A DNA stretch of 42,825 nt from a virus. Positions 137 to 26,057 of the stretch are shown here, piece after piece. Location of the stretch: IMG/VR virus record IMGVR_UViG_3300045988_031260. One strand, given 5' to 3'. The translations under genes and the position numbers were made by a program. The notes under the pieces were generated by a model, which saw only the letters and a program-made list of their open reading frames with translations, was not told the DNA's origin and made no database searches. Within the stretch, counting starts at the first letter, position 1. Every line of letters begins with the position of its first letter.

Positions 137-1231
137 TTACTTTTTATTTGTTAGTAACGTGTTAGTAACAGCATCCACAAGTGTCTGCGCGTCGATGTGC
201 GTATATATGTTTGCGGTGGTGGAATAATCGGCGTGTCCGAGTATTTTTTGGAGCATTTCCGGGGGCAATCCCTCTTTTACCGCCCGGGACGCGTATGTGT
301 GGCGTGTGGCGTGCGGGGTCTTTCGCACAATACCCAGCCTGTCAAGGAGCGGGTAAAAATCACGCCTGCGGAAGTTTGCTGGGACTTTTTGCCCATCGTA
401 GCCGGATAACAGTAGCTCCCCCGTTGCTTGCTTCGCAAAGTAGGCAAAGTATTGTTTCCCCTCCGGTCGAATGGGGATAATTCGGTTTCTGCCTGCTTCG
501 GTTTTCTCCCCGCCTACAACATAGTCTCCGTGATAGTCTGCCAGAGGTAGGGAAAACAATTCCCCGATACGCATACCCGTTGCCAGCAGCATCAAGACAA
601 TTTTTGCCGAATCGCTGTTATCGGATTCCAATTTACGGATATCTTCCACCGTGAAGATGTCCTTTTCTTTTTTGACATTTTCCGGCAAGCGCACAAACTT
701 AGCAAAATTTGTCGTGCATATTTCCTCCCGGATGGCCCAGTTCGACATCTGCGTTATGAGCTGCTTGTACTTATTCACGGTGGAATGGCTCTTGCTCATG
801 TGCGGGTCAAGTGCGGCCTGAAAGTCTGCGGTGCGAAGGTCACGGAACTTTCTGCTATGCAATGGAGCAAATACCTTGTAAGCCGTGTTATAGGAATCAA
901 TCCCCTGCTTGCCGATCTCCTTGTAATGCTCCTCTTTCCACGCATCAAAGACTTCAGCAAAGGTCATGTTGTACCTATCCGTTAAACTCTTGCCGTTCAG
1001 CCGCTCCAAAGCGTCCAGAGCGTCTGTCTTGCGCTCATAGTACCCAATGACCACCTTGTTCTTTGCAGCCACCCACGGCTTTTTCCTGCGGCCTGACAGC
1101 TTGTATACCGTACCGGTTCCGTTCGCTCTTTTTAGTGCCTTGCGCTTTTCTGCCAACTGCTTTTTGCCGCACAAATGGCAGTAAATAGCATTTTCGGCAA
1201 GCTCTGCCCCGCATTTCATGCAATTTTCCAT
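137..1231 (-). CDS. int: Tyrosine recombinase / phage integrase with N-terminal zinc ribbon
   Basis: C-terminal HATRHTYAS...LGHADYSTTANIYTH matches the R..HxxR..Y catalytic signature. N-terminal CMKCG..CHLCG. Start placed at ATG 1231 with AAGGGG upstream; the ORF track extends to 1276. Confidence 0.92.
   Translation of the reverse strand: MENCMKCGAELAENAIYCHLCGKKQLAEKRKALKRANGTGTVYKLSGRRKKPWVAAKNKVVIGYYERKTDALDALERLNGKSLTDRYNMTFAEVFDAWKEEHYKEIGKQGIDSYNTAYKVFAPLHSRKFRDLRTADFQAALDPHMSKSHSTVNKYKQLITQMSNWAIREEICTTNFAKFVRLPENVKKEKDIFTVEDIRKLESDNSDSAKIVLMLLATGMRIGELFSLPLADYHGDYVVGGEKTEAGRNRIIPIRPEGKQYFAYFAKQATGELLLSGYDGQKVPANFRRRDFYPLLDRLGIVRKTPHATRHTYASRAVKEGLPPEMLQKILGHADYSTTANIYTHIDAQTLVDAVTNTLLTNKK
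147..169 (+). repeat. Two tandem GTTAGTAAC copies 11 bp apart; candidate integrase arm-type sites (P' arm)
   Basis: GTTAGTAAC at 150-158 and 161-169. TTTGTTAGTAAC at 147-158 recurs at 42650-42661 on the other side of the core. Confidence 0.45.
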
Positions 1232-1235
1232 TGTA

Positions 1236-1790
1236 TCACCCCTTCGATTTGCGAACCATAGAAACGAGAACAGCAAGTGTAATGGCGCTGCTGGCTATCA
1301 GCACCGCAATAAGCACCCATGCAAACACGCTTGCAACCCCACCACGAATCAGGCCCATATTTGCCGTTTTGAAGTCGAGAAACACATACACCGCCAGTAG
1401 AAGCATAACAATTACAAGGGCGGATATGGTAACATATATAACCCGCTGCTGTGATTTGATTCTCTTGTGCTGCAGGTCGATGGTCTGGGCCATGCTTTCC
1501 ACATTGCCCTCCAGATGTGCCGCCTTTAACTCCGCTTCTCTGTTTTGCTGCATTTCTTCAAGCCGCTTTTCTGCAGGAACATCTTCTTCGATCCCGAAAT
1601 ATCTATCCAGCGATACCCCCAGTACAGCACAAATGTCACCGGCGTTGTACACGCTGGGCGATTTGGACGCTGTGGCGAAGAAATTGTTGATGGTGGAAAT
1701 GGAGATTCCGGTTTCGTCAGATAGCTTTTGCGTGGTGATTCCCTTCCTGATTTTTGCGTCCTTGCAAATGTCGCGTAGTGTCGGATTCAT
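1236..1790 (-). CDS. Membrane-anchored XRE-family HTH protein
   Basis: N-terminal HTH (ITTQKLSDETGISISTINNF), central coiled segment and two C-terminal hydrophobic helices. ATG 1790 preceded by GGGGGA. Confidence 0.75.
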   Translation of the reverse strand: MNPTLRDICKDAKIRKGITTQKLSDETGISISTINNFFATASKSPSVYNAGDICAVLGVSLDRYFGIEEDVPAEKRLEEMQQNREAELKAAHLEGNVESMAQTIDLQHKRIKSQQRVIYVTISALVIVMLLLAVYVFLDFKTANMGLIRGGVASVFAWVLIAVLIASSAITLAVLVSMVRKSKG

Positions 1791-4409: not shown

Positions 4410-4813
4410 AGAAAGGCGACGACAAGTGCAGGACATGCCGCTATAACGCGATGCTGATGGGCTACAACTATCACAGGTGCGACTACGCAACAATGAACTG
4501 GCCGCGCGTGAAGCTAAAGGACTTCCCGGACGGGCCGTGGCGCGGGCCGCACTGCGCGGCATATGAGCCGATGGATCCGAAGAAGAAGCGCAAGAACCGG
4601 CGGGTCAGCGAGCCGATCGGGAAGGCCATGCAGACCGATCGCGCCGAATACAAGCGCAAGGCGGCGGCGCTCTGCGAACAGATGCGCGTGCTCTACGCAC
4701 AGGGCAAGAGCGACGCGGAGATCGGGCGCGAGATCGGGCGGAGCAAGTCAACCGTCCGGCGATGGCGGCAGAAGTCCTGTCTCCCGGCGCAGGAGCACGA
4801 GGGCACGACATGA
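4406..4813 (+). CDS. Cys-rich protein with C-terminal HTH
   Basis: N-terminal CRTCRY..HRCDY. C-terminal GKSDAEIGREIGRSKSTVRRWRQK resembles a resolvase/sigma-r4-type HTH. Confidence 0.7.
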   Translation: MKKGDDKCRTCRYNAMLMGYNYHRCDYATMNWPRVKLKDFPDGPWRGPHCAAYEPMDPKKKRKNRRVSEPIGKAMQTDRAEYKRKAAALCEQMRVLYAQGKSDAEIGREIGRSKSTVRRWRQKSCLPAQEHEGTT

Positions 4814-4986
4814 GGGTTTACCAGCTCGTGACGAAGGACAAGTACCGCCTGCCGATCGCGCAGGCGGACACGATACGGGAGCTGGCGGAGATGATCGGCA
4901 AGCCGTATCAGACGGTGCGCAAGGCCATTACGCGGGCCATGTGCGGACAGGCAAAGAACACCCGGTATACATGGGTGGACATATAA
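4810..4986 (+). CDS. Small hypothetical protein (58 aa)
   Basis: ATGA overlap with the upstream stop. HTH-like IRELAEMIGKPYQTVRKAI. Confidence 0.55.
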   Translation: MRVYQLVTKDKYRLPIAQADTIRELAEMIGKPYQTVRKAITRAMCGQAKNTRYTWVDI

Positions 4987-5372: not shown

Positions 5373-6107
5373 ATGCTGAAGGCAGCTATCGAAAAGATCA
5401 TTGAGGTATCCGGGCCGAAGATCGTGACGGACAACGCGGGCGCTATGTACAGCGTCTCGAACGGTGGGATCGAGCAGATCCGCCCCGAACTGGACTACGT
5501 CAAGCCGATCAGTCTGAACAGTCTGGACGCGCTGGTGCAGATGGTGAAAAGCGAGGCCACACTGTTCGAGGGGAGCCGGATCTACCTATCCGTGCGCGAT
5601 CATCTGACGGTGTCCTGCTTCGGGCATCCCCGCAATGACCTCCGCCAGAAGCGCATCGTCTACTATGAGGCGCGGGCGAAGGACGTTCCCGGATGGGACA
5701 GCCAGACGAAGCTCCCGTTCGATCAGGCGGCGGTCGCCCTGCAGACGCGCTTTCAGGAGAGCGCAGACCGGACGTATACACTGACACTGCTGAGCCAGAT
5801 TACAACCGGCGCGAAGATCACCTACAACGACATCGGCGTGGCGACGACGGTCGTGACATCGAAGGGCGTCTCGCTCCAGCAGAACAGCACGATCCGCCCG
5901 CTGGTGAAACTGCGGCCTTACCGCACGTTTCAGGAGGTGGAGCAGCCGGAGGGGCTGTTCCTGATCCGCATCGACGAGCGCGGGATCACCTTTACGGAGG
6001 CGGACGGCGGCATGTGGAAGCTCGCAGCGCGGCAGACGATCAAGTCGTATCTGAGCGAAGCGCTGAAGGACGAGATCGAGAGGGATCTTGTAACGGTGAT
6101 GATGTAA
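5373..6107 (+). CDS. Hypothetical early protein (244 aa)
   Basis: AAGGAGGAG RBS. No motif recognised. Confidence 0.75.
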   Translation: MLKAAIEKIIEVSGPKIVTDNAGAMYSVSNGGIEQIRPELDYVKPISLNSLDALVQMVKSEATLFEGSRIYLSVRDHLTVSCFGHPRNDLRQKRIVYYEARAKDVPGWDSQTKLPFDQAAVALQTRFQESADRTYTLTLLSQITTGAKITYNDIGVATTVVTSKGVSLQQNSTIRPLVKLRPYRTFQEVEQPEGLFLIRIDERGITFTEADGGMWKLAARQTIKSYLSEALKDEIERDLVTVMM

Positions 6108-6114
6108 CGGACAT

Positions 6115-6142
6115 GCCACGGCGGGGACGGCCCCGCCGTGGC
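6115..6142 (+). other. Perfect 12-bp GC-rich hairpin without a U-tract
   Basis: GCCACGGCGGGG / ACGG / CCCCGCCGTGGC directly after the stop at 6107. Confidence 0.6.
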
Positions 6143-6157
6143 GCAAGGGAGGGTGCA

Positions 6158-6511
6158 ATGTACATCTGCGACAACTGCCAGAGTGTATTTGAGGAGTGGG
6201 ACGAGGTTACGGACGAGTCCGAGGAGTACGGGGACGGGACGATTATCCGGTGTCCGCACTGCGGCGAGGAGGTCGGAAACGGCTACGAGTACGAGGCGGA
6301 CGACTGCCCGGTGTGCCACGGGTGGAAGAACAAGAACGACCGGATCTGCCGCAAGTGCGCGCTGAGCGCGCGGGGGCGGTTTCTGGGGCATCTGCGGGAC
6401 GGCTACACGCTGGAGGAGCTGCGCTGGCTCACGGAGCAGCTTGAGGGTGACACGCTGGACGAGGCGATGCTTCGCGGGCGTTTCATCGGAGATGAGGTGT
6501 CAAATGAGTAG
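6158..6511 (+). CDS. Zinc-ribbon protein (four CxxC pairs)
   Basis: ATG 6158 after AGGGAGGG. CDNC, CPHC, CPVC and CRKC motifs. Confidence 0.7.
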   Translation: MYICDNCQSVFEEWDEVTDESEEYGDGTIIRCPHCGEEVGNGYEYEADDCPVCHGWKNKNDRICRKCALSARGRFLGHLRDGYTLEELRWLTEQLEGDTLDEAMLRGRFIGDEVSNE

Positions 6512-16728: not shown

Positions 16729-17190
16729 ATGAGCAAAAAATACACACTTCCTGCAGATGTGCGCCTTGAGTGCATCGCCTATGTCAGAGGCTATCCCCGG
16801 AGGGTAAAGGCATACAACGATGCGCGGAACGAGATTCTATACGGCAGCAAGAGTGCGGACGGTATGCCCCACTCCCCCGGCATTGGTAGGCCAGCAGAGG
16901 GCAAGGCGGAACAGCTTGCGGACATAGAAAACTGGGCGGAAACCAAGAAAATGCGGGCTGTAGAATACGCCATAGACCGCTGCGGGCGGGGTTTGGAGAG
17001 TGAGAGCATCCGTAAACAGCTTACACAGGGGATCATGCGCAACTGTCAGGGCAAGCACAAGTATTCCCGCAATAGGATTATCGTGCCGGGGATAAGCGAG
17101 CGGACATTCAGCCGGAGGAAAGAGCAATTTCTCTATGACATAGCCATATATTGTGGTTTTGCAGAGAAAGTTGGCACAAATTCCACCTAA
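16729..17190 (+). CDS. RinA/ArpU-like late-gene transcriptional regulator (putative)
   Basis: Position just upstream of the packaging module. C-terminal HTH-like GISERTFSRRKEQFLYDIAIYCG. Confidence 0.5.
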   Translation: MSKKYTLPADVRLECIAYVRGYPRRVKAYNDARNEILYGSKSADGMPHSPGIGRPAEGKAEQLADIENWAETKKMRAVEYAIDRCGRGLESESIRKQLTQGIMRNCQGKHKYSRNRIIVPGISERTFSRRKEQFLYDIAIYCGFAEKVGTNST

Positions 17191-17428: not shown

Positions 17429-17521
17429 GCAGGTGTAGCTCAGTCGGTAGAGCTTTATCGCACGAAGGGATATGCGATTGAATGCCCTTGGTCGCTGGTT
17501 CGAGTCCAGCCGCCTGCGCCA
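17429..17521 (+). tRNA. tRNA-like element with canonical acceptor, D and T arms and encoded CCA, but a non-canonical 40-nt central region (isotype undetermined)
   Basis: Acceptor GCAGGTG/CGCCTGC, D-arm GCTC-AGTCGGTA-GAGC, T-arm GCTGG-TTCGAGT-CCAGC and GCCA end. The region 17454-17493 does not fold as a 5-bp/7-nt anticodon arm. Confidence 0.6.
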
Positions 17522-17915
17522 AACTCTAAACGGAGTCACCAACGGAGTATAAACAAGTGGGGCAACCGTGGAAACCGGGCATATATGCGGCATAGGCGCC
17601 CCGTAAGGGGAGGACACAGCGAGTGACGGGGACTTTCCCCGAAGCGCTAAAGCAGGGCAGGACTGCAATGCCGCACCAACCACACAAGCGGGCGAGGAAG
17701 CGCGAGAAGTTAAGCGCACACAAGCTGTGGCCACAGCGACGGACAGTTAATCCGCAAAAACAGTGTGCGGCTGACGAAAAGGCGCAGCGCGGTGTGGTGC
17801 CGAAATAACTGTGTAACCCATGTTTGAGAGCTTCCAGAAGGCCGCATGGGAGGGGAAAGACTGTTACTGTAGCCAAGGGGTGGGGGCTGGTGACAAACAA
17901 GGAGGAAAAACGACT

Positions 17916-18362
17916 ATGGAAATCATCAAACCCGGTAAAATCAGGAGAGTAAAACTGAAATGTCCGGAATGCGGGTGTGAATTCGCCTGTTCTCCGGTAG
18001 AAATGGTACGCAGATACGGAACTGTGTTTGCTAAGTGTCCACAGGAGGGATGTGGCAAAAGCGTGGAAGTGCCAAACGGAATCCCCGAGTACATCGAGCC
18101 TGCAAACCATACTGCCATTGGAACGATCACTGTGGTGCTGTCAGGGGCAACCGTTACAGAAGAGCCTGTAGGCGATGAGCGGTATATCACAAGGGTGACG
18201 AATGTATCGAAGGAAGCTGCAGAGCATATCAAAGCACTGGGCGCAGATACCAGCATCTCCCTGATGATTGATGGCAAATACCCGGAGCGCTTCTACATGG
18301 GAAATACCGGGATGCTTATCGCCTACGAGGCCCACGATGGAAAACTCTACGAACAGGAGTGA
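17916..18362 (+). CDS. Zinc-ribbon hypothetical protein (148 aa)
   Basis: AAGGAGGAAAAA RBS. CPECG...CPQEGCG. Confidence 0.7.
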   Translation: MEIIKPGKIRRVKLKCPECGCEFACSPVEMVRRYGTVFAKCPQEGCGKSVEVPNGIPEYIEPANHTAIGTITVVLSGATVTEEPVGDERYITRVTNVSKEAAEHIKALGADTSISLMIDGKYPERFYMGNTGMLIAYEAHDGKLYEQE

Positions 18363-18368
18363 TACATA

Positions 18369-18938
18369 ATGGCTACAGAGAAACCTACCGCCATCGCAAA
18401 AACAAAGGATAACCGACCGGAGACCGGCAGAGGCGGCAAAAGAAACTTCCCTTCCAGCCTCCCTGACCTCAGCAGCGATGAAGATAGAGCACTTGTATCT
18501 CAACTCCTTACAGAGGTACTTGTAGAGTATAAACAACCAAAGGTAAAGAGTGACGAAGAACTCAAGGAGAGAATAAACGACTATTACGCACGCTGCGCAC
18601 AGACAGGCCAGACCCCTACAGTAGAGGAACTATTCCTGTCTACCGGCTACGCAATTAGCACGGTTAAGGACTGGGAATACGGGAGACGCAAGGGATTTAG
18701 CCCCGAAACAGCGGCCATAATTAAAAAAGCCAAGGGTTTTATGCAGACTTTTGACGCAAAACTTGTGGTTTCCGGGAAGCTGAATTTCCTTGCATATTGC
18801 TTCCGTGCCAAGAACTATTACGGCATGGTAGACAAGCAGGAGATGGTTTTGACCCCGAACCAGCCGCAGATTGAGGGCTTGACCCCTGAACAGCTCCAGC
18901 AGAAGTACATTGCAGCCAGCGACTTTGATGTAAAATGA
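18369..18938 (+). CDS. terS: Terminase small subunit
   Basis: INDYYARCAQTGQTPTVEELFLSTGYAISTVKDWEYG...FRAKNYYGMVDKQE resembles gp3-type small terminases. Sits at the head of the late region. Confidence 0.75.
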   Translation: MATEKPTAIAKTKDNRPETGRGGKRNFPSSLPDLSSDEDRALVSQLLTEVLVEYKQPKVKSDEELKERINDYYARCAQTGQTPTVEELFLSTGYAISTVKDWEYGRRKGFSPETAAIIKKAKGFMQTFDAKLVVSGKLNFLAYCFRAKNYYGMVDKQEMVLTPNQPQIEGLTPEQLQQKYIAASDFDVK

Positions 18939-19150
18939 GCCGAAACCGAGCGACTTTTACACGACTTTCCGTCAATTCTGGGAAAGTAGGCAAGTGAAAC
19001 CCCGCGTTTATACACGGAATTTTGTAAACGACTATGATTTTGGGGTAAAATGAGCGACTTTGGCGCAGACGCTTGCGACTTTCACAGCGACTATGCCAGC
19101 GACTTTTGCGACTTCCCCGGCGACTCTGGTAGCGACTTTGGCAGCGAGGT
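18918..19150 (+). repeat. Iteron array of at least 9 GCGACT(T/A/C)(T/A/C) copies, mostly at 12-bp spacing
   Basis: GCGACT starts at 18919, 18950, 19054, 19075, 19087, 19099, 19108, 19120 and 19132, plus ACGACT at 18961 and 19028. The first copy lies in the last codons of terS. Confidence 0.85.
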
Positions 19151-19428
19151 ACGCCACCCCCGGAATCCCTGGCCAGCATGGAGGGGTCCACACCACCAGC
19201 CACCGAGACCGCGCCACCGAGCAGGGGCCAGCCACCGACAAGGCCACAGGGGCAAAAGGGCGGCGGCAAGCTGGCAGCGCAAGCGGCAAGCCACGGCGCA
19301 CGGGGCAACGCCACGCCATACGCCAACAAACAAGGCGCACAGCGCGCGCAGAGCGGTAGCAATATAGGGACAGCGCCCAGAGTTAAAGCGCCTTATAGGT
19401 GCGTTAAAATAGCAAATAAGGCATACAG

Positions 19429-19455
19429 AAAAAAGCCCCCGGAATACACCGGGAG
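19429..19455 (-). terminator. Intrinsic terminator of the leftward island operon
   Basis: The minus strand reads CTCCCGG-TGTATT-CCGGGGG followed by CTTTTTT. Confidence 0.8.
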
Positions 19456-19456
19456 C

Positions 19457-19491
19457 AAAGGGAAACCCCGCACAGCTTGCGCCATGCGGGG
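19457..19491 (-). terminator. Upstream tandem hairpin, a weaker terminator
   Basis: 7-bp stem CCCCGCA/TGCGGGG (19466-19472/19485-19491) followed on the minus strand by TTTCCCTTTG. Confidence 0.45.
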
Positions 19492-19579
19492 CGGTGGTCA
19501 TTTCTGGAGTTTTGCCAGATCGAAAAGTAAAAGAATAGGCTGCAACAGAATATACAACAGAATCAAGGGCGGCACCTCC

Positions 19580-19849
19580 TTACAGCTCCGTGACAAAGAC
19601 GCACATATCTTCATCACGGACAAACTCGCCTGACTCGGCATCATACGTACAGCATGCGCCCTCCTCGTCTGCGCTGTTCGCCGCGTCGATGCAATAGTCA
19701 ACATTGTCTACGGTATATGTGTCCGTATCCTCGTTGTAGGGTAGCGCCCCGGCGGTAAAGTAGTCGTTGCTCCAGTCCGGATCGTAACCGCTGCCGTTCC
19801 AGCGCTGTATCCTGATTTCCACCGTTTTCTTGCCGTCTGTAATTTTCAT
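19580..19849 (-). CDS. Small acidic hypothetical protein (89 aa), island operon gene 4
   Basis: ATG 19849 after AGGGGGA. MKITDGKKTVEIRIQRWNGSGYDPDWSNDYF... Confidence 0.7.
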   Translation of the reverse strand: MKITDGKKTVEIRIQRWNGSGYDPDWSNDYFTAGALPYNEDTDTYTVDNVDYCIDAANSADEEGACCTYDAESGEFVRDEDMCVFVTEL

Positions 19850-19895
19850 TTTTTTGTCCCCCTTTTTTTGATTGTACCACATCCGCCGGAGCGGG

Positions 19896-20162
19896 TCAAG
19901 CGAAAGTAAACCGGCGGGCGGTTGTCGTTTTTGTGTATCGGGCTGCGATCTCTGGCAGTTCCTTTTTCAGGGCGGTTGTGTCCACCCTGGAGGATGTAAC
20001 CGCCTTATAAGTGGCTTTGTGTTCTGACCCCGCCAGGGATTCAACCCCGGCGGCGGTCATGCGCTCTTTAAGCTGGTCTTTGAGGCTTTCCACCATTGCG
20101 GCGGCCTCCTCCTGCATGCGGATATACTGGGCCAGTTCGGCCATGATGGTATCAATGTTCAT
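19896..20162 (-). CDS. Small hypothetical protein (88 aa), island operon gene 3
   Basis: GGGGGA RBS, helical N-terminus, basic C-terminus. Confidence 0.7.
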   Translation of the reverse strand: MNIDTIMAELAQYIRMQEEAAAMVESLKDQLKERMTAAGVESLAGSEHKATYKAVTSSRVDTTALKKELPEIAARYTKTTTARRFTFA

Positions 20163-20174
20163 TGTAAATCCCCC

Positions 20175-20402
20175 TTAAAATATGCGGAAAAGATTGCTAT
20201 TCCGCGCGGTGATGGCGTAATATTCGCCCGTTTCGGTGTTCTGGATAAGTCCGCCGTTAATGCCGTATGTGCCGGAGCTGTAGCCGACCTTCTCGCCGTG
20301 CTTCCATTGCTCCATAACTTCGGCGGTGCTTGCGTTGGTCAAATCGTGCGCCATGCCGGAGCGGACAAGGCTTTTCAGCTCGGAAAGTTTGTATTTTCTC
20401 AT
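20175..20402 (-). CDS. Small hypothetical protein (75 aa), island operon gene 2
   Basis: Start overlaps the gene 1 stop (ATGA). Confidence 0.7.
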   Translation of the reverse strand: MRKYKLSELKSLVRSGMAHDLTNASTAEVMEQWKHGEKVGYSSGTYGINGGLIQNTETGEYYAITARNSNLFRIF

Positions 20403-20818
20403 GCCTGCACCTCCTGCCGGGCGGCCCGGATCGCCGAATACACGCGGCGGAAAGCCTGACGCAGCGCCCGGGCTTGCACATCAAGCCATTCTTCTTGGCT
20501 GTTCGGCCTGCGCTCCCCGTTGCGGGTCTTTTTGAGTTCGGAGGGGGTGCAGAGGGCGGCGGCGATGTCCCCATCATACACAAGGGCCGAGCCGCCCCAG
20601 CTGTATTGCTCCCAGTCCTGCGCACCGTTTAGGGCTGCGGCCTCGGCGGTAGTCCATGTTGCGAGATCGTCGGCGGAGATATAACCGTCTTTGTAGTATT
20701 CCGTGATCTGCTGCAGCATATCCACGGCATAGGCTGTAACGCCCCGGCTCCATGCGCTGCGGTCCTTGCGCTGTTCCAGTGTCTGCGCTACCTTTGCAAG
20801 TATTGTTGTATAATCCAT
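20399..20818 (-). CDS. Hypothetical protein (139 aa), island operon gene 1
   Basis: GGGAGG RBS 7 nt upstream of ATG 20818. Confidence 0.75.
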   Translation of the reverse strand: MDYTTILAKVAQTLEQRKDRSAWSRGVTAYAVDMLQQITEYYKDGYISADDLATWTTAEAAALNGAQDWEQYSWGGSALVYDGDIAAALCTPSELKKTRNGERRPNSQEEWLDVQARALRQAFRRVYSAIRAARQEVQA

Positions 20819-20850
20819 TGTATTACCTCCCGGACTTATGGCCTAATCTC

Positions 20851-20879
20851 TTGCCAACGGCTGCCGGATGTGGTATACT
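20851..20879 (+). promoter_or_regulatory. Strong sigma-70-type promoter firing rightward
   Basis: TTGCCA, a 17-nt spacer ending TGg, then TATACT (extended -10). Confidence 0.6.
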
Positions 20880-20965
20880 CTCCGTGCTGGCCTGTTGGCT
20901 GGTGTGGGGGCGTTCCCGGGTTGCATTGGCTGGCTACCGGGTGCGCCCTCGTCCTATATGCTGAT

Positions 20966-20994
20966 ATTATACTGCCCAATAGCGTATACGTCAA
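20966..20994 (-). promoter_or_regulatory. Near-consensus sigma-70-type promoter firing leftward into the 4-gene operon
   Basis: The minus strand reads TTGACG (20994-20989), a 17-nt spacer, then TATAAT (20971-20966). Confidence 0.7.
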
Positions 20995-21001
20995 TATCTT
21001 T

Positions 21002-21018
21002 TGGGCAAATAATGCCCA
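21002..21018. promoter_or_regulatory. Perfect dyad TGGGCA-N5-TGCCCA, with more half-sites nearby
   Basis: Further TGCCCA copies at 20973-20978 (inside the leftward promoter spacer) and 21059-21064, and TGGGCA at 21251-21256. Confidence 0.5.
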
Positions 21019-21265
21019 TATAAGATATACAATAATGTTATTGTGACATTGTGCATTATGCCCATTGCGGTATACCTGTGTGGGACAAGTGGGGCAAGCT
21101 TCTGCGGCTCTCGATCTCCGGCGGGAATGACCGGGGGCGGGGGATATGCGGCGTCAGCCGGGGGCGGGGTAAGCCCCAAAAATCCCGCAAAAAATAAAAA
21201 GCCATTTTTGCCCCATGTTGTAAAATCCGGCAAAAACAAAAGGACTATTTTGGGCATAAAACATA

Positions 21266-21294
21266 TTGACACAAATTATGCTGTGTGCTACACT
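21266..21294 (+). promoter_or_regulatory. Promoter of the serine recombinase gene
   Basis: TTGACA, a 17-nt spacer ending TGc, then TACACT. Confidence 0.6.
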
Positions 21295-21327
21295 ACCCTT
21301 ACAAGATGCAGGAAGGGAGCGATGCAC

Positions 21328-21915
21328 ATGAAAGTCGGATATATCCGGGTGTCCACGGAGGAGCAGAACACAATCCGCCAAGAGGTAATTATGCAAGACC
21401 TTGGAGTTGAGCGTGTCTACATTGACAAGGCCAGCGGGAAAAGCCGTACAGGCAGGCCGCAGCTGGAGGCAATGATGGATTTCGTCCGAGAGGGCGATGT
21501 GGTCATTGTTGAGAGCATCAGCCGGTTTGCGAGAAGCACGAGGGACTTGTTGACGCTGGTAGAACAGCTTACAGACAAAGGTGTGGGTTTTGTATCGCAG
21601 AAGGAATCCATTGACACGAACACGCCACAGGGCAAGTTCATGCTTACGGTGTTTGGCGCAATGGCGGAGCTGGAACGGGAGCAGACCTTACAGCGGCAGA
21701 GAGAAGGAATTGCGGCTGCAAAAGCGGCTGGGAAGTACAAAGGCCGTCAGCCGATAGCAATCAGCGATGATCTGCTTAAAACGGTGCATGAGCAGTGGTA
21801 CAAGAACGAAATTACCACGGCCTATGCGGTTAAGCGGCTGGGTGTAAGCCGGAACACCTTTTACCGCCGGATGTGGGACTACGAGGATTCCGCAGGGATT
21901 CCGAGACGGCGCTGA
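21328..21915 (+). CDS. Small serine recombinase (resolvase/invertase family) with C-terminal HTH
   Basis: MKVGYIRVSTEEQ catalytic-serine motif, VIVESISRFARS, FGAMAELEREQ and C-terminal AVKRLGVSRNTFYRR. Confidence 0.92.
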   Translation: MKVGYIRVSTEEQNTIRQEVIMQDLGVERVYIDKASGKSRTGRPQLEAMMDFVREGDVVIVESISRFARSTRDLLTLVEQLTDKGVGFVSQKESIDTNTPQGKFMLTVFGAMAELEREQTLQRQREGIAAAKAAGKYKGRQPIAISDDLLKTVHEQWYKNEITTAYAVKRLGVSRNTFYRRMWDYEDSAGIPRRR

Positions 21916-21931
21916 GAGGGGGAAAATAGGA

Positions 21932-22666
21932 ATGAAAAAAGCGAATCCTGCCAAGCAGAAGAAAATGATAATCGTATTAGCCATTCTGCTAATCGTTACC
22001 CTTGCTGTTGCATACAGCAACAAAGATGAGAGCCCTGACACATCGGGAGAGTTTGATGTAAGCGGCAGTGAATCTGTGGAAGAACTGTCGGACATTGTAA
22101 GTGATGGGATTGCAGAAAGGCTTGTTTCTTTCGGCATGACAGAAGATGAGGCACAGGCCGGCCGAGATATTCTGCGTATGTGTGGGGTGGACTCCATTTC
22201 CGGATGTGAGCCAACAGACGCATCGGCATCGGTTGATGGACTTGTGGTATTCCGCGAAGTAGTGGACAAGGACAGAGTGTTCTGGTTCACGGTAGACCAC
22301 CGAGAGATTATTTATGTATCCCTGAATGGAACGGACCTATATGACAAAGACAAGGGCGGGTTCTTGATGACGATAGACGATGTACATGTGCCGGAATCCT
22401 CTGTGCCATACAATGTTTATCGACAGTTGCAATACATGACAGAGACTGTCCTTGACCGATACTTTGTAAGCGCAAAATACTACGACGCATGGGGCATTGG
22501 CCGCGCGGATGAAAAATACATGGTGCAGTGCGAGGTATATGCGTCAAACGCGCTCAAGGTGAAATTCTGGGTTCCGGCAAAGGTCTGGTATGAAGATCAA
22601 GGAAATGGCGAATTTGTTGTTACAGGCGTACAGATTGATGGCACGCAGTACGAAGTGAAGCCGTAA
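21932..22666 (+). CDS. Membrane-anchored (signal-anchor) protein with a ~200-aa external domain
   Basis: Basic N-terminus MKKANPAKQKK followed by MIIVLAILLIVTLAVA. No lipobox cysteine. Confidence 0.75.
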   Translation: MKKANPAKQKKMIIVLAILLIVTLAVAYSNKDESPDTSGEFDVSGSESVEELSDIVSDGIAERLVSFGMTEDEAQAGRDILRMCGVDSISGCEPTDASASVDGLVVFREVVDKDRVFWFTVDHREIIYVSLNGTDLYDKDKGGFLMTIDDVHVPESSVPYNVYRQLQYMTETVLDRYFVSAKYYDAWGIGRADEKYMVQCEVYASNALKVKFWVPAKVWYEDQGNGEFVVTGVQIDGTQYEVKP

Positions 22667-22689
22667 AGGTTCCGCAAAAACCAAATAGA

Positions 22690-22725
22690 ATGGACTACCG
22701 ATTATTCGGCAGTCCATTTTTTATT
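22690..22725 (+). terminator. Intrinsic terminator 13 nt upstream of the terL start
   Basis: 11-bp stem with one mismatch, ATGGACTACCG/CGGCAGTCCAT, followed by TTTTTATT. Confidence 0.75.
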
Positions 22726-22737
22726 GCAGGAGGACGA

Positions 22738-24390
22738 ATGGATTATCGGAAGATTGCGGAAAGCATCAAAAACCGCATAGAGAAAACGCATGACCGAGAA
22801 GCCTACAAGGATTTGCTGGCGTTGTGTATTGGGTACGAAGCGGAGGATTTTGCTGCGGCGCACCAGTTAAATTCAGAAGTCCGAAAGATGACATCCGAAG
22901 CGTTGCGTAACGGAAACCCGAAAGACGCGGAGCATTTCTACACGCTGCACAAGCAAGCTATGCTGTTTGACGCACCGCATGATTTCGATACCTTCCTGCT
23001 GTATGTGGAGATGGACAGAAAGCCGGAGAAGCGGTTTTATGCTCCACGCAGGCGGTATCTAAGACCTATTGTGCAGGGGTATCAAGATGTCCTTGACGGC
23101 AAGTTAAGGTTGCTGACCATTTCCTTGCCGAAAAGAGCCGGGAAAAGCCAGCTGGGGATAAATTTCATCAACATGATGTCCGGCAGAAACCCGGATAAAT
23201 CGTCCCTTATGGAAGGCACAGGCGATGACCTTGTGCGGAGCTTCTACAACGGATGTTTGGAGTATCTGCAAACGCCCAACGAGTATTTATTCTACGATGT
23301 GTTTCCGGATGCTCCCTTGGTGCAGACCAACGCAGACACGAAAATCATCAATCTGCGTTCAAAATCTCGATTCCCTACGGTCATGTGCCGGTCGATTGAC
23401 GCACGGCAGGTGGGTTTGTCGGAGGCAACCAATGTCCTGTACTTGGATGACTGCGTGGAGGGCAGAGAGGAAGCGAAAAACCGTCAACGGCTGGATGATA
23501 AGTGGGAAGTAATTTCCGGCGATATTTTAGGCCGTGCCATAGAGGGTACACCTATTGTGGCCACCGGGACGAGATACTCCCTATATGACCCCATAGGGCA
23601 TTTACAGGAAGAAGCACAAAAAGGCGGCTGGGCATGGAAAGCCATTGAAATCCCCGCCCTTGACCCAATTACAGACGAAAGCAATTATGAGTACGAGCGA
23701 GAGGGGAAAAAGGTTTTTACCACCGCTTATTTCCGTGAGCAAAGGGAGCTTCTGAGCGCGGAACAGTTTGAAAGCGAATTTCAGCAGCAGCCCTTTGAAG
23801 CAAAGGGGCTGCTTTTCAATAAGTCGGAGCTGAACTATTTCTTTGAACTGCCGGTAGATCGTGACCCGGATGCAATCATTGCCGTGGCAGACACCGCAGA
23901 AAGCGGAAAAGATAGCACGGCCATGCCTGTTGCGGCCTTATATGGAGAGGAAGTCTACATTGTGGATGTGGTGTACGATGATTCTCCCGCAGAGGTCACA
24001 AAGCCGGAATGCGCAAGGTGCCTGATTGATAACAAGGTGGGAGACGCACTGTTTGAATCCAATAACGCCGGTATGTATTTTGCGAGAGATGTTGCAGAAA
24101 TCGTCAAAAACGCCGGATTTAATACCAGCATACGGACAAAAAGGACGATTTCCAATAAGCAGACACGAATTGAGTTCGCATCGGATGGAATCAAGAAGAA
24201 TTTTTACTTCAAGCATCCGTCCACATACAAGCGAGGGTGTCAATACTGGGGATTCATGCAGGAAGTGACCACCTATGTAAGAAGCGGCAAAGTGGCGCAC
24301 GATGACGCGCCTGATTCCTTGTCGTTGCTGGAGAACGAAATCCGAAACCGCATCAGCGGCAAGATTGAGATATTCAAAAGACCGTTTTAA
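22738..24390 (+). CDS. terL: Terminase large subunit
   Basis: Walker A-like LPKRAGKS, Walker B VLYLDD, and nuclease-domain motifs AVADTAESGKDS and HDDAPDSL. Confidence 0.92.
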   Translation: MDYRKIAESIKNRIEKTHDREAYKDLLALCIGYEAEDFAAAHQLNSEVRKMTSEALRNGNPKDAEHFYTLHKQAMLFDAPHDFDTFLLYVEMDRKPEKRFYAPRRRYLRPIVQGYQDVLDGKLRLLTISLPKRAGKSQLGINFINMMSGRNPDKSSLMEGTGDDLVRSFYNGCLEYLQTPNEYLFYDVFPDAPLVQTNADTKIINLRSKSRFPTVMCRSIDARQVGLSEATNVLYLDDCVEGREEAKNRQRLDDKWEVISGDILGRAIEGTPIVATGTRYSLYDPIGHLQEEAQKGGWAWKAIEIPALDPITDESNYEYEREGKKVFTTAYFREQRELLSAEQFESEFQQQPFEAKGLLFNKSELNYFFELPVDRDPDAIIAVADTAESGKDSTAMPVAALYGEEVYIVDVVYDDSPAEVTKPECARCLIDNKVGDALFESNNAGMYFARDVAEIVKNAGFNTSIRTKRTISNKQTRIEFASDGIKKNFYFKHPSTYKRGCQYWGFMQEVTTYVRSGKVAHDDAPDSLSLLENEIRNRISGKIEIFKRPF

Positions 24391-24393
24391 GGG

Positions 24394-25851
24394 GTGACGC
24401 TATTGAGACAAATGTTTGGCAGAAAGGTCATTTATTCGGATGCTACCGAGGTAAACGAGGGTAATATTGCAAATATCCTGCAAAAGGCAATGGTTGTCCA
24501 CGCCGCCAACCGGACGGACATGGAATATTTATACAGGTACTATAAAGGCGACCAGCCTATCCTTGCCAGAGTAAAGGATGTGCGCCCGGAGATTAACAAC
24601 AAGATTGTCGAAAACCGGGCAAACGAGATCGTGTCCTTCAAGGTCGGCTACCTGATGGGAGAGCCTGTCCAGTATGTCAGCAGAATAGCCGATGAAAAAG
24701 CGGCTGAAATGGTCACAAAGCTGAACGATTATGTTTTGTCCGAGGACAAACCGGCAAAGGATAAGGAGCTGGCGGACTGGTTTCACATATGCGGCACGGC
24801 CTATCGCATGGTCATGCCGGACACCCCGGAAGATGAGGACGAAGCCCCGTTTGAGATTTATACCCTTGACCCACGGTTTTGCTTTGTGGTGTATTCCGTG
24901 CAGTTGGGTAATCCTCCCCTTATGGCGGTCAAGTATGTCAAGATGGAGGATGGGACAGTCGTTTTCAGCTGTTATACGAAAGACCATTTCTATGAAGTGA
25001 CCGACACATGGCGGATCGTTCGCAGTGAGCCGCAGATTTTGGGTATTCCCATCATCGAGTACCCGGCAAACCGTGCAAGACTGGGTGCATTTGAAATCGT
25101 CCTGAATCTGCTGGATGCAATCAACAATGTGGAATCCAACCGCATGGACGGCGTGGAGCAGTTCGTGCAGTCCTTGCTTCTGTTCCACAATGTGCGTATT
25201 TCCGAGGAACAGTATTCCGCATTGCGGCAAGACGGCGCAATTCAGTTTGAGGACATTGACCCGCAGAAGAAAGCGGAGATCAAGAACCTTGTTACGGAGC
25301 TGAATCAAACGCAGACACAGACCCTTGCAGACAACCTGTATAACACGGTGCTGACAATCTGCGGGATGCCCAACAGAAACGGCGGTTCTTCCACCTCTGA
25401 CACCGGCTCTGCAGTCATCATGCGTGACGGATGGTCTGCGGCAGAAGCAAGGGCAAAAGATTCCGAGTTGGTATTCAAGCGTTCCGAAAAAGAGTTTCTG
25501 AAAGTGCTTTTGCGGATTTGCAATGACTTGAGCGATTTGTCTTTGAAACTGTCCGCAATCGAGATCAGATTTACCCGTCGGAATTATGAGAACATTTCCG
25601 AAAAGGCGAATGTGCTGGTAACCATGCTGGGCAACGGCAAAATTGCGCCGCAGCTTGCATTTACACATTGCGGTCTATTCAGCGACCCGCAGCTTGCGTA
25701 CAAGATGAGCATGGAATATCTTGAGGAAAACGGAGGAAACAATGGAATTAACGCTGGAGATGGTACGGACGATCAACGAAATCCTCAAGAACCGCAACCA
25801 AGCGGAAGTGAAAGTGGAGAACGGGAAGATCGTAGTAATCGAAGTGCGTAG
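24394..25851 (+). CDS. Portal protein (SPP1 gp6-like)
   Basis: YYKGDQPIL...EINNKIVENRANEIVSFKVGYLMGEPVQY. Directly follows terL. Start uncertain among GTG 24394, TTG 24403 and ATG 24412. Confidence 0.88.
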   Translation: MTLLRQMFGRKVIYSDATEVNEGNIANILQKAMVVHAANRTDMEYLYRYYKGDQPILARVKDVRPEINNKIVENRANEIVSFKVGYLMGEPVQYVSRIADEKAAEMVTKLNDYVLSEDKPAKDKELADWFHICGTAYRMVMPDTPEDEDEAPFEIYTLDPRFCFVVYSVQLGNPPLMAVKYVKMEDGTVVFSCYTKDHFYEVTDTWRIVRSEPQILGIPIIEYPANRARLGAFEIVLNLLDAINNVESNRMDGVEQFVQSLLLFHNVRISEEQYSALRQDGAIQFEDIDPQKKAEIKNLVTELNQTQTQTLADNLYNTVLTICGMPNRNGGSSTSDTGSAVIMRDGWSAAEARAKDSELVFKRSEKEFLKVLLRICNDLSDLSLKLSAIEIRFTRRNYENISEKANVLVTMLGNGKIAPQLAFTHCGLFSDPQLAYKMSMEYLEENGGNNGINAGDGTDDQRNPQEPQPSGSESGEREDRSNRSA

Positions 25852-25867: not shown

Positions 25868-25899
25868 GTGGGTCTGGCAAGGGCTTGACCGACAGCCGA

Positions 25900-25933
25900 G
25901 GGGCTATCCGAAAGGGTAGCCCCTTTATTTTTT
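25900..25933 (+). terminator. Strong intrinsic terminator between portal and scaffold genes
   Basis: 10-bp stem GGGGCTATCC / GAAA / GGGTAGCCCC followed by TTTATTTTTT. Confidence 0.8.
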
Positions 25934-26057
25934 CGATTTACCCGCCGCAAGGTGATAAATGGTCAGGGACGACCTAAAAACGCAAACGGGAGACAACCCG
26001 CAAAAACAGAGAATAGTGCTGAGTGAACAGCCTTGTTAAACGCAGGAGGTAATCAAA

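Follow-up and report, generated by a model that had tools for sequence, protein, structure and literature searches.

The separated terS and terL genes of a gut Clostridia phage lineage probably enclose an ancestral accessory bay beside a candidate packaging signal

In the 42,825-nucleotide virus sequence IMGVR_UViG_3300045988_031260 (the window, to which all coordinates refer), the genes for the small and large terminase subunits, terS and terL, are separated by an interval at positions 18939 to 22737. Gene calls bear out the reported end of terS at 18938 and start of terL at 22738. The initial annotation had taken the interval for an autonomous island splitting two formerly adjacent genes. 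Comparison with relatives indicates instead that such a separation is the usual state in a widespread lineage of gut Clostridia phages and that the interval consists of parts of known kinds. We consider it likely that the interval is not an insertion but an ancestral, lineage-wide accessory bay beside the packaging signal, in which a few swappable cassettes are set in a conserved scaffold. The elements that had been listed within it (a repeat array, a leftward operon, a recombinase, a membrane protein, and a hairpin before terL) were all located at their annotated positions (Table 1).

A scan of IMG/VR with TerL returned 428 relatives, of which the best 80 loci were taken for comparison. Seventy-one other loci hold both terS and terL, giving 72 mapped loci with the window, and in all 71 the two genes are 3.1 to 5.1 kb apart. 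Clustering of the open reading frames (ORFs) in these gaps yields one recurrent map, which runs from terS through a noncoding stretch, a leftward operon with homologs of L3, L2, and L1, one or two serine recombinases, and a gene with a signal anchor or lipobox to terL. A second scan, covering one genome per bacterial species, added 16 loci with TerL identities of 63 to 78%, in members of the Oscillospiraceae (Dysosmobacter, Faecousia, and Ructibacterium) and Lachnospiraceae (Oribacterium and Moryella). In these bacterial genomes, the gap measures 2.9 to 6.1 kb wherever terS was found. The closest cultured phage, Clostridium phage Maintenon (TerL 37% identical), has an annotated terS-terL gap of 2.65 kb, filled by small genes in both orientations together with two tRNA genes. 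Contiguous terS and terL genes, which would represent an empty site, were found in none of the 71 relatives, 11 genome loci, or Maintenon. The interposed layout is thus common to 71 of 71 relatives, two bacterial families, and one cultured phage, contrary to the notion of an island that has split an adjacent terS-terL pair.

The conservation profile obtained by projecting 38 close relatives onto the window distinguishes scaffold from cassettes. Conserved are terS (found in 38 of the 38 relatives spanning the region), the array, the two terminators of the leftward operon (aligned in 100% of close relatives, with 88 to 91% identity), L3, L1, the operon leader, the recombinase gene, the first 70 to 100 nt of the gene for the surface protein, and all sequence from the hairpin on. 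Variation is limited to L4, L2, and the surface-protein ectodomain and, upstream of terS, to ORF180, a swappable cassette that is present in 18 to 45% of close relatives. L3 (93 to 100%), like L1 and the recombinase, is found in 82 to 100% of close relatives, so these genes do not behave as presence/absence cargo, and L2 is retained with strongly diverged alleles. When presence or absence was used as a test for morons, only 16% of close relatives proved to carry L4, and 32% carry the ectodomain. An own promoter and terminator, as expected of morons, were also found, by consensus scans that report sequence matches, not transcription data. The interval is therefore like morons and hypervariable late-operon loci in having self-contained promoter and terminator units of varying content among the packaging genes, but it differs from morons in that most of it (L3, L1, leader, recombinase, and hairpin) is conserved scaffold and not optional cargo. 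Variable auxiliary genes “between TerS and TerL” have been described independently for another gut prophage subfamily, one of the “Ca. Heliusvirales” (bioRxiv 10.64898/2026.05.11.724261). Membership of the window in that group looks unlikely, as it has no PolA-sized early ORF (the largest has 522 aa), although the signature genes of the group were not searched for. For this abundant gut phage lineage, separated terS and terL genes are the normal state and should not be annotated as an insertion or a misassembly.

Table 1. Features of the terS-terL interval and its surroundings, in window coordinates
Feature	Coordinates	Strand	Remarks
Tyrosine integrase	137-1276	-	Left end of window
phrog_248 “transcriptional activator”	16729-17190
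tRNA-Val, anticodon CAC	17429-17521		ARAGORN; Rfam match over 17429-17518
terS, P22 gp3-like small terminase, 189 aa	18369-18938	+	Pfam GP3_package E=8.9e-8, above cut-off; phrog_606 “terminase small subunit”
Array of ten GCGACTTT boxes	18919-19139	+	Probable TerS recognition (pac) region
T-depleted, GCCAC-rich tract	19140-19360	.	8 T in 221 nt
Two tandem intrinsic terminators	19492-19465, 19456-19435	-	Close the leftward operon
L4, small acidic protein	19580-19882	-	Likely true start ATG 19849; swappable cassette
L3, 88 aa	19896-20162	-	phrog_6244 E=2.5e-13; C-terminal part of phrog_434
L2, 75 aa	20175-20402	-	No family match
L1, 139 aa, helical	20399-20818	-	AlphaFold pLDDT 74
Structured 5' leader, hairpins P1, P2, and P3	20819-20958	-	About 140 nt
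Rightward promoter-like site in leader	20851-20879	+	TTGCCA-17-TATACT with TG; faces P_L
P_L, near-consensus sigma-70 promoter	20994-20966	-	TTGACG-17-TATAAT, 11/12 match
Dyad site A, TGGGCA-N5-TGCCCA	21002-21018	.	Adjoins P_L; probable recombinase binding site
Dyad site B	21042-21064	.	Near P_L; probable recombinase binding site
G-rich core, G5CG5...G5CG4 then A-rich	21127-21199	.	Conserved element
Dyad site C, TGGGCATAA...	21251-21294 (element with promoter)	+	Overlaps -35 of recombinase promoter
Recombinase promoter	21266-21294	+	TTGACA-17-TACACT
Small serine recombinase, resolvase/invertase type, 195 aa	21328-21915	+	Resolvase PF00239 E=1e-44; phrog_125
Signal-anchored surface protein, 244 aa	21932-22666	+	AlphaFold helix, residues 7-29
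Terminator-like hairpin, bidirectional	22689-22718, T-rich to 22725	.	Ends 13 nt before terL ATG
terL, large terminase, 550 aa	22738-24390	+	phrog_38 E=1e-45
Portal gene	24394-25851		SPP1_portal E=1e-84

The array at the terS stop is a candidate packaging element. Six of its ten boxes match GCGACTTT exactly and four have one mismatch; all ten lie on the plus strand within 221 nt, and only three further exact copies are present in the other 42.6 kb of the window. The boxes are mostly 9 to 12 or 21 to 31 nt apart, with one gap of 93 nt. About 70 relatives, with TerS identities as low as 31%, retain an array of the form AGCGACT(T/A)T where terS ends. The word repeated most often at this position is, in nearly every relative, AGCGACTTT, or AGCGACTAT in groups that are further removed, which holds even at 31 to 54% TerS identity, and the 600 nt around the terS stop contain most of its copies in each locus of about 17 kb and all of them in some loci. 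The array thus has a property looked for in pac sites, that of repeated boxes at or in terS which are conserved along with it. In SPP1, the pac site consists of direct repeats arranged in sets at the gene for the small terminase (PMC4737164), and the array resembles the SPP1/SF6 pac sites in consisting of such sets about one helical turn apart. In contrast to them, it occupies the 3' end of terS and the sequence beyond instead of the 5' end, and the TerS protein is of the P22 gp3 type. Because it is tightly linked to terS, has all boxes in the same orientation, and has a spacing of about one turn, the array, perhaps together with the T-depleted tract that follows it, is probably the pac signal recognized by TerS for headful packaging. 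In uncultured phages of the Oscillospiraceae and Lachnospiraceae, such a candidate would be useful for predicting transduction and for engineering.

The T-depleted tract holds the lowest-T 150-nt windows of the whole sequence, and all six of its frames are open, which gives rise to spurious ORFs. Apart from the rearranged locus L041, every relative with a TerS identity of 87% or more keeps the depletion. In that locus, positions 4675 to 4868 are a 194-nt inverted copy of window positions 18902 to 19095 (the end of terS and the first part of the array), and terS is truncated; this may be a rearrangement or an assembly error.

The serine recombinase that had been annotated with its own promoter was confirmed as such by the match to PF00239 and by the consensus scan. 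The domain spans residues 3 to 137, and the segment GYIRVSTEEQ, which aligns with GYVRVSTNDQ of Gin, carries the serine nucleophile in the pattern Y-x-R-V-S-T-x-x-Q. The closest solved structure is that of the Gin invertase (4m6f, E=4e-30), and gamma-delta resolvase also matches (E=3e-24); the protein aligns with the gamma-delta and Tn3 resolvases over residues 3 to 180/188. At 195 aa it falls within the approximately 180 to 210 aa of enzymes with a C-terminal helix-turn-helix (HTH), for which there is a weak HTH_8 match at residues 169 to 182. An alternative ATG is present at 21322. A serine recombinase occupies this slot in 72 of the 72 mapped loci, either as a small enzyme of 195 to 210 aa with one of three C-terminal types or as a truncated “large” type of 261 to 265 aa; sometimes two are found in tandem, and some loci hold only remnants. 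The 261- to 265-aa form (L013, L032, L048 to L053, and others) resembles the N-terminal part of a large serine recombinase and occurs alone or in tandem with a small one. In L034, a 316-aa ORF (cluster C37; locus positions 5390 to 6340) lies ahead of the recombinase gene.

Dyads A, B, and C adjoin the -35 regions of both divergent promoters, P_L and that of the recombinase gene, and their sequence changes with the C-terminal type of the enzyme. Recombinases with the helix region GVSRNTFYRR (type A, 15 loci) have three to five copies of TGGGCA/TGCCCA in the upstream 350 nt, and those with NVSSRTFYRR (type B, 13 loci) have two or three copies of TGCCGCA/TGCGCA there, with none of the other motifs in either type. 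Those with GLKPNTFYRR (type C, 13 loci) have two or three copies of TTGCAA in the same region and also zero to four copies of the type B class. Types A and B have an identical 140-residue catalytic domain. As two nonadjacent segments change together across an unchanged catalytic domain, the dyads are read as recombinase sites, and the simplest reading of these sequences is that the recombinase binds them. The enzyme would then have an identifiable binding code, with three domain types matched to three motif sets, and by binding dyads that flank both divergent promoters it would probably regulate its own expression. A further dyad, TGGGCAATAAGTGCCC (1807 to 1822), resembles dyad A and was considered as a second recombinase site but rejected, since it is unchanged with recombinase type in relatives. 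It lies in front of a gene for an HTH protein with a membrane anchor (1236 to 1790, minus strand) and is probably a separate operator.

Between dyads B and C, the G-rich core is 79 to 95% conserved even where the recombinase type differs; RNA folding gave nothing significant for it. The contigs L012, L023, L026, and L035, all four independent of one another, begin within it, at the equivalent of positions 21139 to 21144, which may reflect sequencing or assembly dropout or a boundary between strain variants.

The arrangement has several counterparts among known systems. As in Tn3/gamma-delta res, a small serine recombinase gene lies downstream of a divergent promoter region with unequally spaced dyads, which are located upstream of the gene, match the DNA-binding domain of the enzyme, and overlap promoters. 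The site spacings of 17, 23, and about 34 bp, and the gap of 200 nt between B and C, are unlike those of res. No transposase family match was found in the interval, and no flanking or terminal inverted repeats. The placement also recalls Cre-lox of P1, in that a recombinase and its probable site are a few kilobases beyond the candidate packaging site; the annotated P1 record puts lox 4.0 kb downstream of the pac cut, and here the distance is about 2 kb. Cre, however, belongs to the tyrosine recombinases and works on linear or relaxed DNA, whereas the enzyme here is a serine recombinase, and classical serine resolvases need supercoiling. Homologs with 48 to 50% identity are encoded directly upstream of terS in Clostridium phage vB_CpeS-CP51 and directly upstream of terL in Clostridioides phage phiSemix9P1, neither of which has the leftward operon. 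Together with P1, these placements indicate that a recombinase near the packaging genes is a recurring arrangement. In our literature searches, no study of a recombinase between terminase genes came up.

The divergent region would thus probably serve as a res-like site for resolving or cyclizing phage DNA. Resolution of dimers or cyclization is the function that we prefer for the recombinase, unproven as it is. In its full form, the proposal is that the recombinase and the dyads about 2 kb downstream of the TerS-linked array make up a Cre-lox-like device built from a resolvase, which would cyclize or resolve headful-packaged, terminally redundant genomes, would extend to a large group of related phages of gut Clostridia, CP51 and phiSemix9P1 included, and would also repress both divergent promoters. 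We put this forward tentatively and regard it as rather unlikely to hold in every part.

An invertible switch of the Hin/Gin type is less probable still. The enzyme belongs to the same family as Hin, Gin, and Cin, with Gin as its best solved match, and phrog_125 is annotated as “DNA invertase”; in addition, 24-nt inverted repeats (21041 to 21064 and 21251 to 21274; 79% match) flank a 186-nt segment beside the gene, and the operon points the opposite way in a distant subgroup (L074 to L083). Flipping of the 186-nt segment or of the whole leftward operon could switch the operon, the surface protein, or terL. However, the segment has the same orientation in 45 of the 45 relatives that carry it, no promoter is predicted within it, and its inverted repeats largely amount to the similarity of the -35 regions of the two divergent promoters. 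The operon is leftward in 44 of 44 close relatives (L004 to L047), and the opposite orientation is confined to loci too diverged for end points to be defined. Unlike the Hin, Gin, and Cin genes, moreover, the recombinase gene is not beside tail-fiber genes, and no segment occurs in both orientations.

It is similarly improbable that the interval is a plasmid-style maintenance module, with the array as replication or partition iterons, the recombinase as a multimer resolvase, and the phage persisting as a plasmid. Iteron-like direct repeats and a resolvase are typical of plasmids, and the record with the homologous recombinase of phiSemix9P1 is annotated as circular. Scans against family libraries, though, revealed no Rep, ParA, or ParB gene in the interval, the array follows terS and not any replication gene across the related phages, and the window encodes a tyrosine integrase and a repressor. 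Some relatives, furthermore, sit within chromosomal contigs of 230 to 440 kb.

The possibility that the interval is a recently acquired autonomous mobile island, which brought its own recombinase between formerly adjacent terS and terL genes, is very slight. It is suggested by the presence of promoters, terminators, and a recombinase within the interval and by a short repeat pair near its left edge, GTAAAATGAGC, which had been proposed to mark an insertion or duplication junction. The pair is real, and its two copies lie where they had been reported, but it is part of a 20-nt unit within the array and does not flank the interval. Because the copies are internal to the conserved array and their spacing of 115 nt is kept in 22 of 38 close relatives, GTAAAATGAGC is not an insertion junction, and neither flanking direct repeats nor a target-site duplication was found at the ends of the interval. 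Nor is the composition foreign relative to the flanks, the GC content being 0.50 to 0.57 in the interval, 0.48 to 0.54 in the flanks, and 0.55 to 0.60 in the early region. The recombinase is of the small resolvase/invertase type instead of the integrase type, and the layout, for which no empty site was seen, persists to TerL identities of 63 to 68%. A chimeric contig joining unrelated DNA between terS and terL, which had been named as a possible refutation of the island, is excluded because more than 80 assemblies, independent of one another and drawn from several studies, have the same order, as do isolate genomes; the nearest irregularities are the inverted array piece of L041 and the four contigs that break at the G-rich core.

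Several points weigh against the interpretation of the interval as an ancestral bay whose recombinase serves resolution or cyclization. The evidence is computational throughout. TerL and TerS are without sequence relatives among solved structures and have no close typed relative. Searches with the leftward proteins of the family libraries Pfam, PHROGs, and NCBIfam and of the defense-system library PADLOC gave only uninformative PHROG matches, for L3. Decayed or truncated recombinases in some relatives indicate that the gene is not strictly essential. The covariation of domain and motif could reflect linkage, although the identical catalytic domain lies between them. No product of recombination was seen, either as a second orientation of the 186-nt segment or as the recombinase-less joint predicted for excision of the recombinase and surface-protein unit, of which there was none in IMG/VR. 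Cyclization and integration are already covered by two other proteins of the phage, an Erf-like annealing protein and the tyrosine integrase, and classical resolvases require supercoiled circles, which makes the cyclization of linear DNA doubtful. A direct repeat of 31 nt (74% match) on either side of the recombinase and surface-protein unit was dropped as a candidate, being A-rich and partly the flank of the terminator.

The rightward intrinsic terminator that had been annotated 13 nt before the terL ATG is present, by sequence and fold, as a terminator-like hairpin. Its stem of 11 bp (7 plus 4, with one A-C mismatch between them) is followed by TTTTTTATT, and the folding z-score is -3.5. It has the GC-rich hairpin and T-run of an intrinsic terminator; A-rich sequence upstream suggests that it works in both directions. 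A hairpin and T-run directly before the terL ribosome-binding site (RBS), here GGAGGA, come in no fewer than 12 versions of different sequence among the related phages, and they are missing where a gene with an HExxH motif is coupled to terL and also in L090 and L091. This group-wide conservation strengthens the earlier suggestion, which stands, that late transcripts from terS meet opposing transcription and then a terminator-like hairpin before they reach terL. The hairpin would stop read-through from the recombinase and surface-protein unit and thereby shield terL. As there is no room for a promoter between the hairpin and the RBS, late expression of terL would need antitermination or an unrecognized promoter, such as one overlapping the hairpin, implying a so far unknown way of switching on the packaging genes.

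Two further sequence elements are found around the rightward units. The motif CCGCAAAAA occurs at 17752, 21185, 22672, and 25998 (four copies versus 0.72 expected), always intergenic and on the plus strand, in front of the rightward units ORF180-terS, recombinase, and terL and of the first gene beyond portal. It was rejected as a late-promoter element since it is not conserved upstream of terL in relatives. After the portal gene, positions 25870 to 25935 contain a two-hairpin element, consisting of a GCAAGGGC hairpin, ACAGCC, and a GGGCTATC...GGTAGCCC hairpin with a T-run. The same element lies directly before terL in the distant relatives L078, L084, L087 to L089, and L098.

The membrane anchor that had been assigned to the protein encoded downstream of the recombinase is supported by the N-terminal helix in its AlphaFold model. 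A conserved anchor is joined here to an ectodomain that behaves as a swappable cassette; the model is confident, yet no fold match was obtained at E<0.001. In relatives, the slot is taken by an OB-fold protein (PF12869) that shares the signal anchor or by one of several lipobox proteins, and all alternative occupants have either a signal anchor or a lipobox. The product of the slot would accordingly be a variable protein of the cell surface, expressed most likely in the prophage state, and together with the small leftward genes the slot is a candidate source of prophage-conferred traits, such as the exclusion of other phages.

The annotated leftward four-gene operon with a consensus promoter and tandem terminators was corroborated by the consensus scan and by a codon model, with terL, portal, and terS as its training set, under which all four ORFs are positive. 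With a strong sigma-70 promoter, a 140-nt leader, and two terminators just short of the array, it appears to be a self-contained unit, and its expression is probably independent of late transcription. L1 has 3,986 homologous proteins at E<=0.001, each of them the representative of a 90%-identity cluster; among the 120 homologs listed, none has a Pfam domain and the few named ones are called “hypothetical protein.” Its AlphaFold model is without a fold match in the PDB. L4 has a promoter-like site of its own at 19899 to 19871 on the minus strand (TTGACC-17-TACAAT with TG), just upstream of the conserved start codon, and is probably a small unit appended to the operon.

The leader of the operon is conserved in 65 loci. 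Its helix P2 is formed by GCCAAC/GTTGGC or by GACCAG/CTGGTC, with 25 unique sequences each, which amounts to three double compensatory changes. Single changes give G-U pairs in three cases for the minus-strand RNA versus one for the plus strand. These counts are anchored, since the helices are misaligned in a MAFFT alignment of the leader. The leader has no match in Rfam. Within it, positions 20850 to 20899 are the best-conserved 50 nt of the interval (98% across the 38 relatives), and the diverged leader type keeps the hexamers of the rightward promoter-like site as TTGACC-17-TACACT. This site is inside the P2 loop, about 70 nt from P_L and facing it, which suggests a pair of convergent promoters.

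By gene content, the window is the genome of a temperate siphovirus-like phage. Rightward of the integrase gene, it carries genes for HTH regulators, the Erf-like annealing protein, a DNA methyltransferase, and a PAPS-reductase-like protein. The tRNA-Val gene is followed by ORF180, terS, the interval, terL, the portal gene, and a gene for an SU10-type capsid. ORF180 (17820 to 18362) contains CxxC pairs and ends 6 nt before terS. The tRNA is the sole Rfam match in the window, and its ARAGORN length of 93 nt is unusually long for tRNA-Val.

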